Source of the DNA: Verrucomicrobiota bacterium
Lineage (GTDB): Bacteria; Verrucomicrobiota; Verrucomicrobiia; Limisphaerales; AAA164-E04
Direction of reading: 5' to 3'
Assembly (NCBI GenBank): GCA_047947115.1
Contig: CP170459.1
Span: forward strand, 736,001-800,000
DNA length: 64,000 nucleotides
Below the pieces are notes generated by a model. The model searched no databases. It was not told the DNA's origin and worked only from the letters and a program-made list of their open reading frames with translations. This document shows, piece by piece, positions 1,312 through 6,223 of this stretch (its first letter is position 1; each line of letters starts with the position of its first letter). Both the position numbers and the translations under genes were made by a program.

Positions 1312-3010
1312 GTTTTTTTGCCTTTTTTGATCTGAAGATGTACACACCACTTGTGTGATAGGTCTGCTTGTTAGTGAAAATCTATACCGAGCTTAAGCCG
1401 CTTTGGCTTTTTGCTCCGCAGCTTGCCGTTGTTTCTCTATCAAGGCTCGCCCGATACGATGCAAATTGTAAGCCAGCACCCCAAACCCAACATATCGTTT
1501 GTACCCTGATAGCCCTTTGTCTGGGCATCGGTTCAGTCCGTGATGCTCCAGTTCATTGATGTTGCTTTCAATGGCTGCATGTCGTCGCTTGAGTCTTTTA
1601 AAGGAGCTGCTGGTTTCACGTTCCTCTTCGACTTTATTGCGTCTTCCTTTTTTGGGCATCACTACCTCCGGGATCTGCAGCTTCAAATCCTCTAGTTTAC
1701 TCATGTCACTGAACCCTTTGTCCATGCTCAGCGAATGGATGTTTCCTTCTCCAAAACGATTTACCAGTCGCAATACCAACGGTTCGAGTTCCTGATTGTC
1801 CGTGGTCTTTTCCATGACTTTGTAATCCAATATCAGTCCGTGCTGATCAGTGCTTACTAGGACTTTGTGTCCCAGTTCAACGGAGGGACGCATCTTGCCC
1901 TTGGCGATCCATTCAGTATGGGGTTCGAAGAGCGAAAACACTTTTTCCTCGTGTGGAATAGTCTCTTCTTTCACGATTCGGCGTTCAACCAAATCAATAT
2001 GCTTCTCAAGCATTAAGGCAAAATAGCGGATTTTTTCGAGGCAGAGAAAGTGCGTTGGATCCTGGCAGACTTTATCCACTCGCCCAATATCTTCAGAGAC
2101 TTTTGCTCCAAGTTCCTTTGCTTTGCGAAGGTAATTTTTCGCGGCTTTTTCCTGACGCTGATGTCGATTCTTGCCACCGCGACTAGACTGCTGAAGCTGG
2201 CGCATCAAGCCCTTGATGGTTGTTTTCCAATTTTTGGCTTTACGCCATCCCTCAAGGCCAACCTCCCGGGCAAGCCAACTCAGTAAGTCGATGCTTTTGC
2301 GTGCCGCATCCCACAACAGATTAATATCGGTTGGAAAGTGCACATTGGTCTCAAGAACGTAGCTATCGGTTTTAACGAGGATTTTTTCGGCGACGTTTTT
2401 TTTTAGTTCCTTGCGTCCGTGCAAAACCACGATTTCATTGATTTGCCCCAGAAGTTGCTCGTCCACATGACAAACATTTTCACTGAGAGTTTTGTGGTGA
2501 AAATTTTCCCCACCGGAGGCCACAACGGGCAATCCCATAATCTGTCGCACCAATGAATGGTGATTGGCCATATCCTCAAGCCGGTCATAGTCGCAATCCA
2601 AAGACATTCGACACACACCCAAAACCAGAATTTGCCACAAATCCATTCAGGGGCGACCGGTGTGCTTCTTGTTTCCGATTACCTTTTGTTCCAGCAATTC
2701 GAAAACCTGTTCGTTGATTTCAGGTGTTGAAAAGATCCACTGCAGCCCAGCCAAAGTAGGAGGGAGCTCATCGCGACTTTTTAACGGGATGGAAACGAGT
2801 TCAATAGGTGTTTGACCCAAATTAAGCTGAGCTTCAAATCGCTTGCGCATGGGGCATAACACTACCACTGCAGAGTGATTTTTACGACGAATATCAGAGA
2901 GAAAATCTCATTTTTTCAACAATTTGAATGACAACGTTCCGGGATTCGTTCTCAGAAAACTTCGGAATCCCTTTGCTGACTTGATCATTCTAGTTTTCAG
3001 TCAGGCACTA
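1312..3010 (-). mobile_element. ISNCY/IS5-like insertion sequence inserted in an attC site; its right end is displaced by IS66
   Basis: Transposase 1393-2850. An end motif TAGTGCCTGACTGAAAAC (minus strand from 3010) abuts a half attC. No matching inverted end lies between 1312 and 1392. Confidence 0.75.
1393..2850 (-). pseudogene. ISNCY-family DDE transposase with in-frame nonsense codon
   Basis: ORFs 2647-2850 and 1393-2646 are in one frame: ...HTGRP*MDLWQILVLG, where this family usually reads GRPGM (GGA>TGA at 2647-2649). Motifs DSYVLETNVHFPTD, EKVFSLFEPHTEWI, DKGF and HAAIESNINELEHHGLNRC are present. Confidence 0.85.
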
Positions 3011-3085
3011 GTTAATGGTTCAAATTTCATCATACGCTACAAATCACAGCGGCGGTGGCCAGTTGCCTACACCGTTCTGTTCGCA
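3011..3085 (-). repeat. attC site 4 (partial; interrupted by IS)
   Basis: Matches the R''/L'' half of the other three repeats; R'' TGCGAAC lies immediately after the toxin stop. Confidence 0.85.
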
Positions 3086-3377
3086 CTATATCCGTTGGTT
3101 TCCATAGCGCGGATGCCTGCCATGATGCCTTATACGACAACAATTCGAATACCTTCGCTCAACACCCGATAAAGAAAATGGTATGGAAAACGTTTTAGAT
3201 TGGCTCGGCGGCGTCCCTGATCAACTTGATGAAACCTTAGTGGCGCATTGGCAGCAGCTTCAATCACTGTTATCAATTCCTCCAAAATGCATCTCCTAAT
3301 CGAGGTGAGATGTTATCGTAATGCCGGAGAATCCGTCTGACTTCCCGCTGAACCGTGGGATGATACTCCACTCTCAT
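3086..3377 (-). pseudogene. RelE/ParE-family toxin, two frameshifts (cassette 4)
   Basis: ATGA overlap with the antitoxin. Reads MRVEYHPTVQREVRRILRHYDNISPRLGDAFW / EELITVIEAAANAPLRF...RRANLKRFPYHFLYRV...IRIVVV / RHHGRHPRYGNQRI*, with frame breaks near 3282 and 3132. Confidence 0.75.
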
Positions 3378-3592
3378 CGCCCGCGCTCTTCCTGAACACG
3401 GCGTACGAATTCTTCGTGAAGCATTGGTTCAACAGCCCCGCTTTCCATCTCTGCCTCACGCCTATCCACCTCATCATCTGTGACCATACTATCCGGCGCA
3501 CCGAGAGTTTCGATGAGAGAAACGACCAAAGTGGCACGCTCCGGAGCGTTTAATCCATGAGCTTCCCGCTCAATGTCCTGTAGGGTCATCAC
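3374..3592 (-). CDS. Addiction-module antitoxin (cassette 4)
   Basis: 72 aa, LNAPERATLVVSLIETL...EVDRREAEMESGAVE pattern; directly upstream of the ParE-like toxin. Confidence 0.8.
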   Translation of the reverse strand: MMTLQDIEREAHGLNAPERATLVVSLIETLGAPDSMVTDDEVDRREAEMESGAVEPMLHEEFVRRVQEERGR

Positions 3593-3641
3593 ACAAGAAT
3601 AACTTCATCGACCACCGCATGCAATACTTGTGTCATGTCCG

Positions 3642-3762
3642 AGCAAACGTCGAGACGCTGGCCTGTAAGCCGACCTGACGATTCTCAGTTAAAGGTTCAA
3701 ATTTCATCACACGCTCCAAATCACAGCGGCGGTGGCCAGTTGCCTGCACCGTCCTGGTAGGA
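3642..3762 (-). repeat. attC site 3 (L' box damaged)
   Basis: R'' TCCTACC, L'' GGTGCAGG and a shared central sequence. Five nt shorter than attC1/2 around L'; R' most likely GTTTGCT. Confidence 0.85.
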
Positions 3763-3765
3763 TAC

Positions 3766-4152
3766 CTAAGGATACTTCTCCAGCCAAGCGTCTGAATCAT
3801 CTCCCAAATCCTCTGGGGCAATCTTCCGCAAATGATCGATGATGTCCCGGACAACATGAGCTCGAGCTGCTTCGACCATGTCATCCAACTTGGAATCTGG
3901 GACCAGTGTGCTGCCCGATGGGTAATACCCAATAGTGCCACGCATCTGGCCAACTGCCTCACTCGGATCAGTGGTCTCAAGTGCGGACTCTCTCATCACT
4001 TCGAATATAGTAACGTAACTGTGAGCGAGTCCGAGTCGAACATGTTGAATACCGTAATCCACAAAAAACCAAGCGGACAGGATAGCGAATAATACAGCGA
4101 CAACCACTGATGGAACCAAACGTATACGTTTCACGTGTTCTGGTTCCGTCAT
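3766..4152 (-). CDS. Cassette 3: hypothetical protein with one N-terminal TM helix
   Basis: 128 aa ORF exactly filling the space between attC2 and attC3; hydrophobic LVPSVVVAVLFAILSAWFFV. Confidence 0.75.
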   Translation of the reverse strand: MTEPEHVKRIRLVPSVVVAVLFAILSAWFFVDYGIQHVRLGLAHSYVTIFEVMRESALETTDPSEAVGQMRGTIGYYPSGSTLVPDSKLDDMVEAARAHVVRDIIDHLRKIAPEDLGDDSDAWLEKYP

Positions 4153-4160
4153 GTTCTGGA

Positions 4161-4286
4161 TCCTACCGTCGAGGTCAGGCGCTGGCCTGTAAGCCGACCT
4201 GACAATACTCGGTTAAAGGATCAAATTTCATCATATGCTCCGAATCAAAGCGGCGGTGGCCAGTTGCCTGCACCGCCCTGGTAGGC
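4161..4286 (-). repeat. attC site 2 (126 bp)
   Basis: R'' GCCTACC-5nt-L'' GGTGCAGG ... L' CCTGACC-5nt-R' GGTAGGA; imperfect inverted repeat with one extra base in L''. Confidence 0.9.
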
Positions 4287-4299
4287 GATAAAGAGCAAT

Positions 4300-4632
4300 C
4301 TAACTCTCCATGGTCCGTCTTGCATTCTCTTTCAAGTGCAGTATACGTATCACAGTGCCCCGCGCAATAACTCGAACGCCCTCTCGAATCTCAAACTCTG
4401 TACCAACTTCAAGGTGGTCGACGTGTGCGTGAGGACTCAAGAATCGAAACAAAGTCCTCGCAGTATCGCCCGGTCGAACGCAATCTCTTCCAAGATACTC
4501 CTGATCTGCATCCCAATTCTCTCCCTTGTAATAAAACTGCCCCCTATATCCTGTATGCACTGGTCTGGATCTACCACCGTCCTCGGTGGATAGAAATGAT
4601 ACCTCTGCCTCAATGTCTGGTGGAAATTTCAA
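4300..4632 (-). CDS. Cassette 2: stand-alone EF-Tu C-terminal (domain III)-like protein
   Basis: EAEVSFLSTEDGGRSRPVHTGYRGQFYY...VRPGD...LEVGTEFEIREGVRVIARGTV resembles EF-Tu domain 3; no G-domain. Confidence 0.8.
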   Translation of the reverse strand: MKFPPDIEAEVSFLSTEDGGRSRPVHTGYRGQFYYKGENWDADQEYLGRDCVRPGDTARTLFRFLSPHAHVDHLEVGTEFEIREGVRVIARGTVIRILHLKENARRTMES

Positions 4633-4635
4633 GTG

Positions 4636-4761
4636 GCCTACCGTATAGGTCAGGCGCTGGCCTGTAAGCCGACCGGACGATACTCAGTTAAAGGTTCAAA
4701 TTTCATCATACGCTCCGAATCACATCGGCGGTGGCCAGTTGCCTGCACCGCCTTGTTCGAC
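4636..4761 (-). repeat. attC site 1 (126 bp)
   Basis: R'' GTCGAAC-5nt-L'' GGTGCAGG ... L' CCTGACC-5nt-R' GGTAGGC. Confidence 0.9.
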
Positions 4762-4765
4762 GATG

Positions 4766-5056
4766 TCACGCTCTCGTAATCACCCACTCCTCTGCACTCT
4801 TCCTGAAGTTGTCGGGTATGTTTTTCCACCTAGTCCCTGTAGAAAGTGTCAAATCTCCAACTGTATCGACAATGTGCTTGAACCAATCCAGATAGCTCCA
4901 CTCTCTGGGCTTGGGGGAATACAAGTATCGCCCCTTGGAGTCCCAGTGAACTTCGGTACCCTCACGATAAATCATCGGGTAAGTGTTAGATGTCGGAGTA
5001 ATGAGCAAGCGTCCCTGCTCGTCAATCGCTACCTCGGCTATGGGATCGGTATTCAC
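4766..5056 (-). CDS. Cassette 1: small protein resembling the integron cassette family Hfx_Cass5
   Basis: 96 aa between attI and attC1. The IDEQGRL...IYREGTEVHWD...LYSPKPREWSYLDWF pattern was recognised from memory; no search was run. Confidence 0.6.
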   Translation of the reverse strand: MNTDPIAEVAIDEQGRLLITPTSNTYPMIYREGTEVHWDSKGRYLYSPKPREWSYLDWFKHIVDTVGDLTLSTGTRWKNIPDNFRKSAEEWVITRA

Positions 5057-5062
5057 TTTGTC

Positions 5063-5100
5063 ATCGAACAGTTTAGATTAATGGAAAAATTTCCATGTTA
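5063..5100 (-). other. attI recombination site (putative)
   Basis: Minus strand AATCTAAACT-GTTCGAT. The core GTTCGAT (5063-5069) nearly complements R'' GTCGAAC of the first cassette and lies upstream of the divergent intI. Confidence 0.7.
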
Positions 5101-5199
5101 AATTCCCTTATAGGTGGATGATTTTCCACTTATTGTGATATCTGGGGTGGAAATATGGAAAGTTTTCCATGTGTGATATTTGGTTGACGTTATTTCCAT
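5081..5199. promoter_or_regulatory. Three 16-bp palindromes RTGGA-N6-TCCAY plus a half site between attI and intI
   Basis: ATGGAAAAATTTCCAT 5081-5096, GTGGATGATTTTCCAC 5114-5129, ATGGAAAGTTTTCCAT 5155-5170; half site TTTCCAT ending at 5199. Confidence 0.55.
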
Positions 5200-5224: not shown

Positions 5225-6223
5225 GTGGAAAGCAAGGCCAAATTCATTCCAAATCCGAAGAAGCGCCTGATGGATCAGGTGCGGGAGGTGTTGCGGTATC
5301 ATCATTATGCCTATCGTACGGAACAGATTTATTGCCAATGGATTGTAAGGTTCGTCAAGTTCTACGAAAGCAAGCGGCATCCCAGAGAAATGGGCGCTCC
5401 CGAGGTGCAGGCTTTCTTGTCTCATCTGGCCAGCGATCGGGATGTGGCGGCTTCGACTCAAAAACAGGCGCTGAATGCGCTGGTTTTTCTCTATCGTCAT
5501 GTGCTGGATCAACCGCTGGCCCAAGGTATGGATCCCAGGAAAGCGAGCAGAGGCATGCGTCCTCCAACGGTATTGACGGAAGAGGAAGTGTCTCGACTTC
5601 TGGACGCCATGGAAGGCGTTCATCGTTTGATGGCTCAGTTGATGTATGGTTCGGGACTGCGGTTGATGGAGTGCATTCGGCTACGCGTTAAGGATCTGGA
5701 CTTTGGGCAGGGACAGATCTTTGTGCGTGATGGCAAAGGGGGCAAGGATCGGGTCACGATTTTGCCCACGCAACTGCATCACTCGTTGAAGGCGCAACTT
5801 GAAAAAGTCAGCGCGCTGCATCGTCAGGATTTATCGGAAGGCGCGGGTGAAGTGTATCTGCCGTTGGCATTGGATCGAAAGTATCCAAATGCCGGAAAGT
5901 CTTTTGAGTGGCAGTATGCTTTTCCCGCCAGGAAACGCTCTATTGATCCAAGGTCCGGAAAGGAGCGTCGTCATCATGTCATGGAGAATGGATTGCAAAA
6001 AGCGGTCAAGCGCGCCGCGCTGGCAACAGCGATCCCCAAGCGCATCAGCACGCATACGTTGCGTCATAGTTTCGCGACCCACATGTTGGAACATGGCATC
6101 CACATTAGGGCTTTACAGGAACTGATGGGGCATGCGGATGTGAAAACGACCGAGATCTACACCCATGTCATGAAAAAGGATATCAAACAGTGGATCAGTC
6201 CGCTGGATCGTATCATGGGGTGA
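5225..6223 (+). CDS. intI: Integron integrase
   Basis: Tyrosine recombinase residues intact (GLRLME, GKGGKDR, HTLRHSFATH, MGHAD, TEIYTH), plus the IntI-specific patch VYLPLALDRKYPNAGKSFEWQYAFP. GTG 5225 is the likely start. Confidence 0.97.
   Translation: MESKAKFIPNPKKRLMDQVREVLRYHHYAYRTEQIYCQWIVRFVKFYESKRHPREMGAPEVQAFLSHLASDRDVAASTQKQALNALVFLYRHVLDQPLAQGMDPRKASRGMRPPTVLTEEEVSRLLDAMEGVHRLMAQLMYGSGLRLMECIRLRVKDLDFGQGQIFVRDGKGGKDRVTILPTQLHHSLKAQLEKVSALHRQDLSEGAGEVYLPLALDRKYPNAGKSFEWQYAFPARKRSIDPRSGKERRHHVMENGLQKAVKRAALATAIPKRISTHTLRHSFATHMLEHGIHIRALQELMGHADVKTTEIYTHVMKKDIKQWISPLDRIMG

Follow-up and report, generated by a model that had tools for sequence, protein, structure and literature searches.

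The triplets AAC/GTT are described as the conserved part of attC sites in the accessible text of PMC2727003, PMC4889954, and PMC7439510. According to the accessible text of PMC2811028, GTT is the conserved triplet of integrons, its position 2 is catalytically dispensable, and the proposed reason for its conservation is compatibility in cassette exchange. The same source reports that IntI1 recombined an attC-GGT site with attI1 at 1.0, attC with attI1-GGT at 0.96, and two GGT partners at 0.71 of the wild-type level, and that only the first triplet base must match between partners. Here, we analyzed a window of 64,000 nucleotides from a Verrucomicrobiota bacterium (GCA_047947115.1, contig CP170459.1, positions 736,001 to 800,000), that is, the whole stretch of DNA to which the coordinates below refer. 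The window holds an ordinary chromosomal integron, standard apart from its core triplets. The nearest Atlas cluster of the ATP synthase epsilon subunit, though weak as evidence, places the host probably in Verrucomicrobiota.

A chromosomal integron with two core classes

The intI gene (5225 to 6223, plus strand; GTG start inferred from homologues) encodes an IntI-family tyrosine recombinase with a TIGR02249 score of 435.6 bits (cut-off, 265), and its product aligns with VchIntIA (2A3V) over nearly the full length (E = 1e-87). The array lies on the minus strand and runs away from intI, beginning at an attI site (5063 to 5100, minus strand) with crossover after the G at 5069 and an inverted repeat just upstream. 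Inverted motifs are repeated upstream of attI at 5081 to 5170, in a layout similar to that of a related IntI clade of another phylum, and are possibly accessory integrase sites. Two LexA motifs, sought as signs of SOS control of intI, gave no match, and the cassette promoter search returned one promoter-like site, at chance level. The array is ended by an ISNCY-family transposase gene (1393 to 2868, minus strand; NF033593, 400.6 bits against a cut-off of 325 for 1396 to 2646, with an upstream open reading frame at 2647 to 2868). IS66-family genes (2 to 1350; TnpB, E = 5e-31) adjoin this element.

Four cassettes, all on the minus strand, make up the array. Cassette 1 (4643 to 5069), which carries a gene of the Hfx_Cass5 family (4766 to 5056; PF18287, E = 9e-19), starts with GTTCGAT, its G at 5069, and ends with GTCGAAC (4761 to 4755). 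Cassette 4 (3010 to 3648) is also of the GTT class and has degenerate ends, GTTTGCT at 3648 and TGCGAAC at 3085 to 3079. The original prediction had assigned GTT...AAC to both, and the assignment holds, though the ends are complementary at only 6 of 7 and 5 of 7 positions, respectively. Cassettes 2 and 3 lack the canonical AAC at R'' and GTT at R'. Their predicted GGT...ACC pairs were confirmed: cassette 2 (4168 to 4642) starts with GGTAGGC at 4642 and ends with GCCTACC (4286 to 4280), complementary at 7/7 positions, and cassette 3 (3649 to 4167) starts with GGTAGGA at 4167 and ends with TCCTACC (3762 to 3756), complementary at 8/8. The gene of cassette 2 (4300 to 4632; PF03143, E = 4e-10) resembles EF-Tu domain 3, a stand-alone protein of this kind being carried here as cassette cargo, while that of cassette 3 (3766 to 4152, 128 amino acids) had no Pfam or NCBIfam match and falls into unnamed Atlas clusters. 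Cassette 4 contains an antitoxin-like gene (3374 to 3592; PF09720, E = 7.5e-5, just under the cut-off) and a frameshifted ParE-like gene with a weak PF05016 match (E = 0.07); the pieces of the latter lie in three frames at 3086 to 3377, and three of four public runs are two letters shorter than the window at 3131.

The first two attC sites, both of 126 bp on the minus strand, are a hybrid AAC/GGT site (attC1, 4636 to 4761) and a matched ACC/GGT site (attC2, 4161 to 4286). Each has complementary L boxes (GGTGCAGG and CCTGACC), an extrahelical base, an unpaired spacer, and 5-nt spacers on both arms, which set the register as predicted. The third site (attC3, 3642 to 3762, minus strand) does have the ACC/GTT triplets for which it had been called a hybrid, but its damage had been overlooked, as 5 nt including most of L' are gone. 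Only the AAC arm remains of attC4 (3010 to 3085, minus strand), which is cut at about 3010 by the ISNCY insertion sequence; three runs have loose ends at 3010. An Rfam search gave no match. It had also been suggested that standard attC models could miss such arrays. We trained a covariance model on 39 canonical sites from other families; as these are close relatives, it serves as a proxy and is not the IntegronFinder model. It scored attC1 at 39.5 bits and attC2 at 39.8 bits, and GGT sites of genome G018 were among its 104 matches in 16 loci. The suggestion thus fails for this proxy, with which no loss of detection was seen. We infer that fixed-consensus pattern searches would undercount GGT cassettes.

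We compared the region with metagenome contigs from four public runs, each from a different study; one of the runs may be the source sample. In X1, X2, and X4, the contigs span the GGT and ACC boxes without any deviating letter; a GTT/AAC reading, which would have undone the prediction, did not appear. One attI sequence is joined to three different first cassettes: G-TTCGAT in the window and L038, G-GTAGAC in L039 (IntI 99.4% identical to that of the window) and run X3, and G-GTAGGC in run X2 (hyphens mark the crossover). The variants part at the base following position 5069, as expected if crossover occurs after the first core G and if the attI beside intI takes up different first cassettes. 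Because the switch lies right after the G, the register is GGT and a GTA reading is excluded, independently of the spacers; the shifted register GTA/TAC with 6-nt spacers is ruled out by these variants and by the spacer lengths common to attC sites. The attI junction is also G-GTAGGC in G018, which belongs to another genus and whose IntI is 54% identical to that of G000, and it is GTT in G021 and G002. Furthermore, four GGT cassettes of G018 each occupy two array positions, with 95 to 99% identity and different neighbors. Since GTT or GGT first cassettes stand at the same attI and four GGT cassettes stand at two positions, the GGT class is live. Judged from these sequence comparisons, GGT cassettes are inserted at attI and are mobile, and the same integron combines them with GTT cassettes.

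The original prediction had allowed that GGT sites might be dead mutants, and assembly errors could be imagined as well. The degeneracy of attC3 and of several family sites and the broken integrases of some family members would fit such a view. It is nevertheless refuted, with next to no probability left to it, by the agreement of independent contigs, the covariation of both cassette ends, and the presence of GGT cassettes in first position in several strains.

Distribution of the two codes

Of 401 genomes of the order, 146 contained IntI in an integrase family search, and our survey covered 99 of these IntI regions with room for an array, one extension, and further family loci. The attC scan was blind to triplet position 2 and gave 2 matches at threshold in 4.0 Mb of shuffled DNA. 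In the host family (86 attC sites from six genomes, 47 of them from G018; none found in G002 and G003), R'' was ACC in 43, AAC in 33, and other in 10, and R' was GGT in 37, GTT in 34, and other in 15. The other families of the order (201 sites, 56 loci) yielded one ACC and one GGT, both doubtful calls. As attC sites are non-independent, p values here describe the sample only. Nearly every GGT in the family was GGTAG (36/37), and nearly every ACC was CTACC (41/43). Among GTT starts, GTTAG fell from 110/192 outside the family to 5/34 within it, which indicates that the GGT class takes the place of the most frequent canonical core. The attC bodies bearing ACC include those of 126 bp and 105 bp and several of 56 to 60 bp, and the cassette ends covary: among 67 nonredundant cassettes, 28 were GGT-ACC, 16 GTT-AAC, 6 discordant, and 17 had a degenerate or other end. 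Hence the stipulation that the prediction would fall if other copies never paired GGT with ACC does not apply. These counts indicate that GGT/ACC is a family-wide second core code, spanning two genera and borne by gene-carrying cassettes with several attC types, so that the observation is wider than first stated for cassettes 2 and 3 of the window. A 126-bp attC family of G103, in the same order (L290), has the same length and L boxes and a similar stem, but all 14 of 14 such sites shown are AAC/GTT, including CTAAC/GTTAG.

The loss of GTTAG could also be read as a host-wide mutation or restriction bias against GTTAG/CTAAC that converted the cores, and G000 is indeed depleted in TTAG (0.67) with GTAG as its most enriched form (1.39). 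Yet GTAG is in excess throughout the order (1.35 in DNA pooled from families with GTT only), TTAG stands at 0.93 in G018, the genome richest in GGT, and G000 shows no depletion of the 5-mer GTTAG (ratio, 1.05). A genome-wide TTAG-to-GTAG bias, strong-looking in G000, therefore failed its controls, and we regard this largely refuted explanation as very improbable.

Close IntI relatives occur in 19 of 351 genomes of Desulfobacterota. In 20 such regions, the 15 attI junctions readable by eye were 14 GTT, 1 GAT, and 0 GGT, and 12 attC sites were AAC/GTT in 11 cases and ATC/GTT in 1. None of these junctions or sites of the wider IntI clade had GGT, so the distribution of GGT goes with the host family or with the IntI subgroups of that family and not with the clade. 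At one locus of this other phylum (L427, G487:C43), a short first cassette starts with GAT at attI and ends with ATC, a second compensated position-2 variant. When 351 genomes of the class were searched for matched GGT sites of the short kind, 8 single matches were obtained against 6 for a control pattern, which we read as chance; this pattern is blind to long attC sites, and the GGT-rich genomes lie outside that sample. Viral contigs gave 104 matches to a 15-mer, none of them a family attC by BLAST, and 0 for the full-site pattern; plasmids gave no match to the short attC. Full-text literature searches, covering abstracts for most papers, returned no natural GGT/ACC class, and supplements such as the attC lists of PMC4889954 could hold rare examples.

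Several related loci showed features of their own. At G000:C1:5847680-5848230 (L033), what remains of a second intI, its 3' part (85% identity over 40 amino acids), is fused directly to a cassette with a GGT-class-like start and the end TCCTACC, the next start being GGTATGC; the joint is present in 4/4 runs. A cluster without integrase at G000:C1:4321100-4324100 (L030, L031, L035) contains three toxin-antitoxin-like cassettes (judged by eye) together with degenerate attC sites that belong to the same family; one of these sites has an ACC arm. The closed genome G018 carries at least four arrays (L182, L384 to L388); stops and a frameshift interrupt the best of its IntI copies, and behind an intI relic there is a second attI followed by the same first cassette. 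In other families, attC sites at L248, L271, L286, and L303 end in the same unrelated sequence instead of R', which suggests one insertion element targeting attC, and the attC families at L055, L224, and L291 have right-arm spacers of 7 to 8 nt versus the usual 5 to 6.

Pairing in the folded site and the role of the integrase

It seems that triplet position 2 must pair inside the folded attC and need not match between partners. An excised GGT circle, having a paired core, would then be a good substrate and insert normally, while in an array, where the attC arms come from two neighboring cassettes, unlike neighbors would give a mismatch. Such a junction is predicted to recombine poorly and thus to be hard to cut out again. 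Folding with DNA parameters gave predicted probabilities of the recombinogenic fold of 6e-6 for hybrid attC1 and 0.31 for matched attC2, and for short sites the medians were 10^-0.38 (31 matched) versus 10^-2.48 (20 hybrid), a gap partly due to mismatches at positions 4 to 7. For IntI1, the accessible text of PMC2811028 gives a decrease from 2.2e-3 to 6e-6, about 370-fold, for a noncomplementary triplet (GTT against ATC), a T.T mismatch in an integration assay, where our case concerns C.T and A.G mismatches and excision. On these models, attC1 and other mixed junctions should be poor sites for recombination. The original prediction had taken the hybrids attC1 and attC3 as signs of tolerance, which is not borne out: hybrids form whenever the classes adjoin and are predicted to be impaired, and attC3 is broken anyway.

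Hybrid junctions were neither depleted nor enriched (27/62 pooled, p = 0.45; 15/38 in G018 with about 15 expected, p = 1.0). There is no excess of them; junction types mix at random, so the array statistics show no cost and no lock. Arrays growing mainly at attI would show random mixing whatever the excision rate. This bears on the idea that the second code was selected as a lock or barrier, with GGT entering easily and leaving mismatched neighbors that stabilize arrays or shield the cassette pool from foreign integrons. The large predicted folding penalty of hybrids, the restriction to one family, and the IntI1 mismatch penalty just cited would suit it, but the lack of excess, the movement of GGT cassettes, and the continued presence in these arrays of GTT cassettes whose attC bodies are typical of other families make it improbable.

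In a FastTree tree of 143 rows, 7 of 8 family IntIs fell in one clade (support, 100) with Desulfobacterota-type IntIs, as two subgroups at an open fork, and the eighth stood on a long branch elsewhere. The residues matching VchIntIA Y18, T22, Y26, K160, and G161, named as cleavage-site neighbors in the accessible text of PMC2811028, are conserved in the window IntI; the residue comparison revealed no changed cleavage-site contacts of the kind expected for altered specificity. No family-specific contact residue was found, since the five columns common to both family subgroups each occur in 10 to 24% of 135 sister sequences, and none is convincing as a mark of the family. The prediction that this IntI joins GGT and GTT cassettes through relaxed specificity therefore stands in part: both classes are mixed by the same integron, but because IntI1 already recombines GGT according to PMC2811028 and the contact residues are standard, this mixing does not call for relaxed specificity. 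The GGT class can likely do without a special integrase.

An alternative is that the family integrases have adapted, preferring GGT or tolerating a mismatched R box, and so drove the second code. GGT was found only with IntIs of the host family, the related IntIs of another phylum, which share the attI layout, gave the GTT and GAT junctions described above, and hybrids are not depleted. Set against this, IntI1 requires no change for GGT, the contact positions are conserved, the shared columns recur among sister sequences, and the G000 and G018 IntIs differ as much as noted. We consider adaptation unlikely, although the existence of two IntI subgroups may leave a subtle enzyme preference conceivable. 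The explanation that we favor, and hold to be probable, is an ordinary chromosomal integron in a host family that employs both GTT/AAC and GGT/ACC, both inserted at attI after the G, GGT likely without a special integrase, with junction mismatch predicted to limit excision; more than half of the underlying family sites (47/86) come from the single genome G018.

Origin of the second code and comparison with known systems

The cassette end GCCTAAC with a C-led 6-nt spacer is common in the order, and loss of one A gives the ACC form. ACC ends may have arisen in this way, the cassette start requiring a separate T-to-G change. Junction-templated conversion as a route of spread was statistically unsupported: 13/30 mismatched start bases matched the upstream arm in the family and 5/27 outside it. 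Cassettes discordant by G/T at position 2 matched the hairpin neighbor in 3/3 cases. A bolder reading, which appears doubtful to us, is that the whole family is midway in replacing the universal core by GGT/ACC, spread over unrelated attC bodies by conversion at folded junctions, with mismatches acting as one-way locks and a partial exchange barrier. On the favored reading of an ordinary integron, GTT would normally stay universal because mixed junctions are costly, and this cost would likely shrink once GGT became common in the family's own cassette pool, so that the second code could persist as a local dialect. A family with two codes at about equal frequency is a natural exception that allows a direct test of the exchange-compatibility idea. 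What mixed junctions cost, how far the pool is isolated, and by which route a new core comes to many attC types all bear on how cassettes form.

The closest engineered counterparts are the attCaadA7-GGT and attI1-GGT sites used with IntI1 by Frumerie et al. (PMC2811028), which, in the accessible text, show the same compensated T-to-G change at position 2 and near wild-type recombination. Unlike those mutants, the class described here is natural, family-wide, and carried by gene-bearing mobile cassettes, and it is mixed with GTT, which creates mismatched junctions, a GGT case outside that study as far as its accessible text goes. Sedentary chromosomal integrons of the VchIntIA/VCR type share with this locus an IntI divergent from attI and the array, attC sites with R and L boxes, an unpaired spacer and extrahelical bases, crossover after the first G, a toxin-antitoxin-like cassette, and related attC copies. 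The locus differs from them in having two core classes side by side in one array, and about half of the family's cassettes are without the triplet that the accessible text of PMC2811028, PMC2727003, and PMC4889954 describes as conserved.
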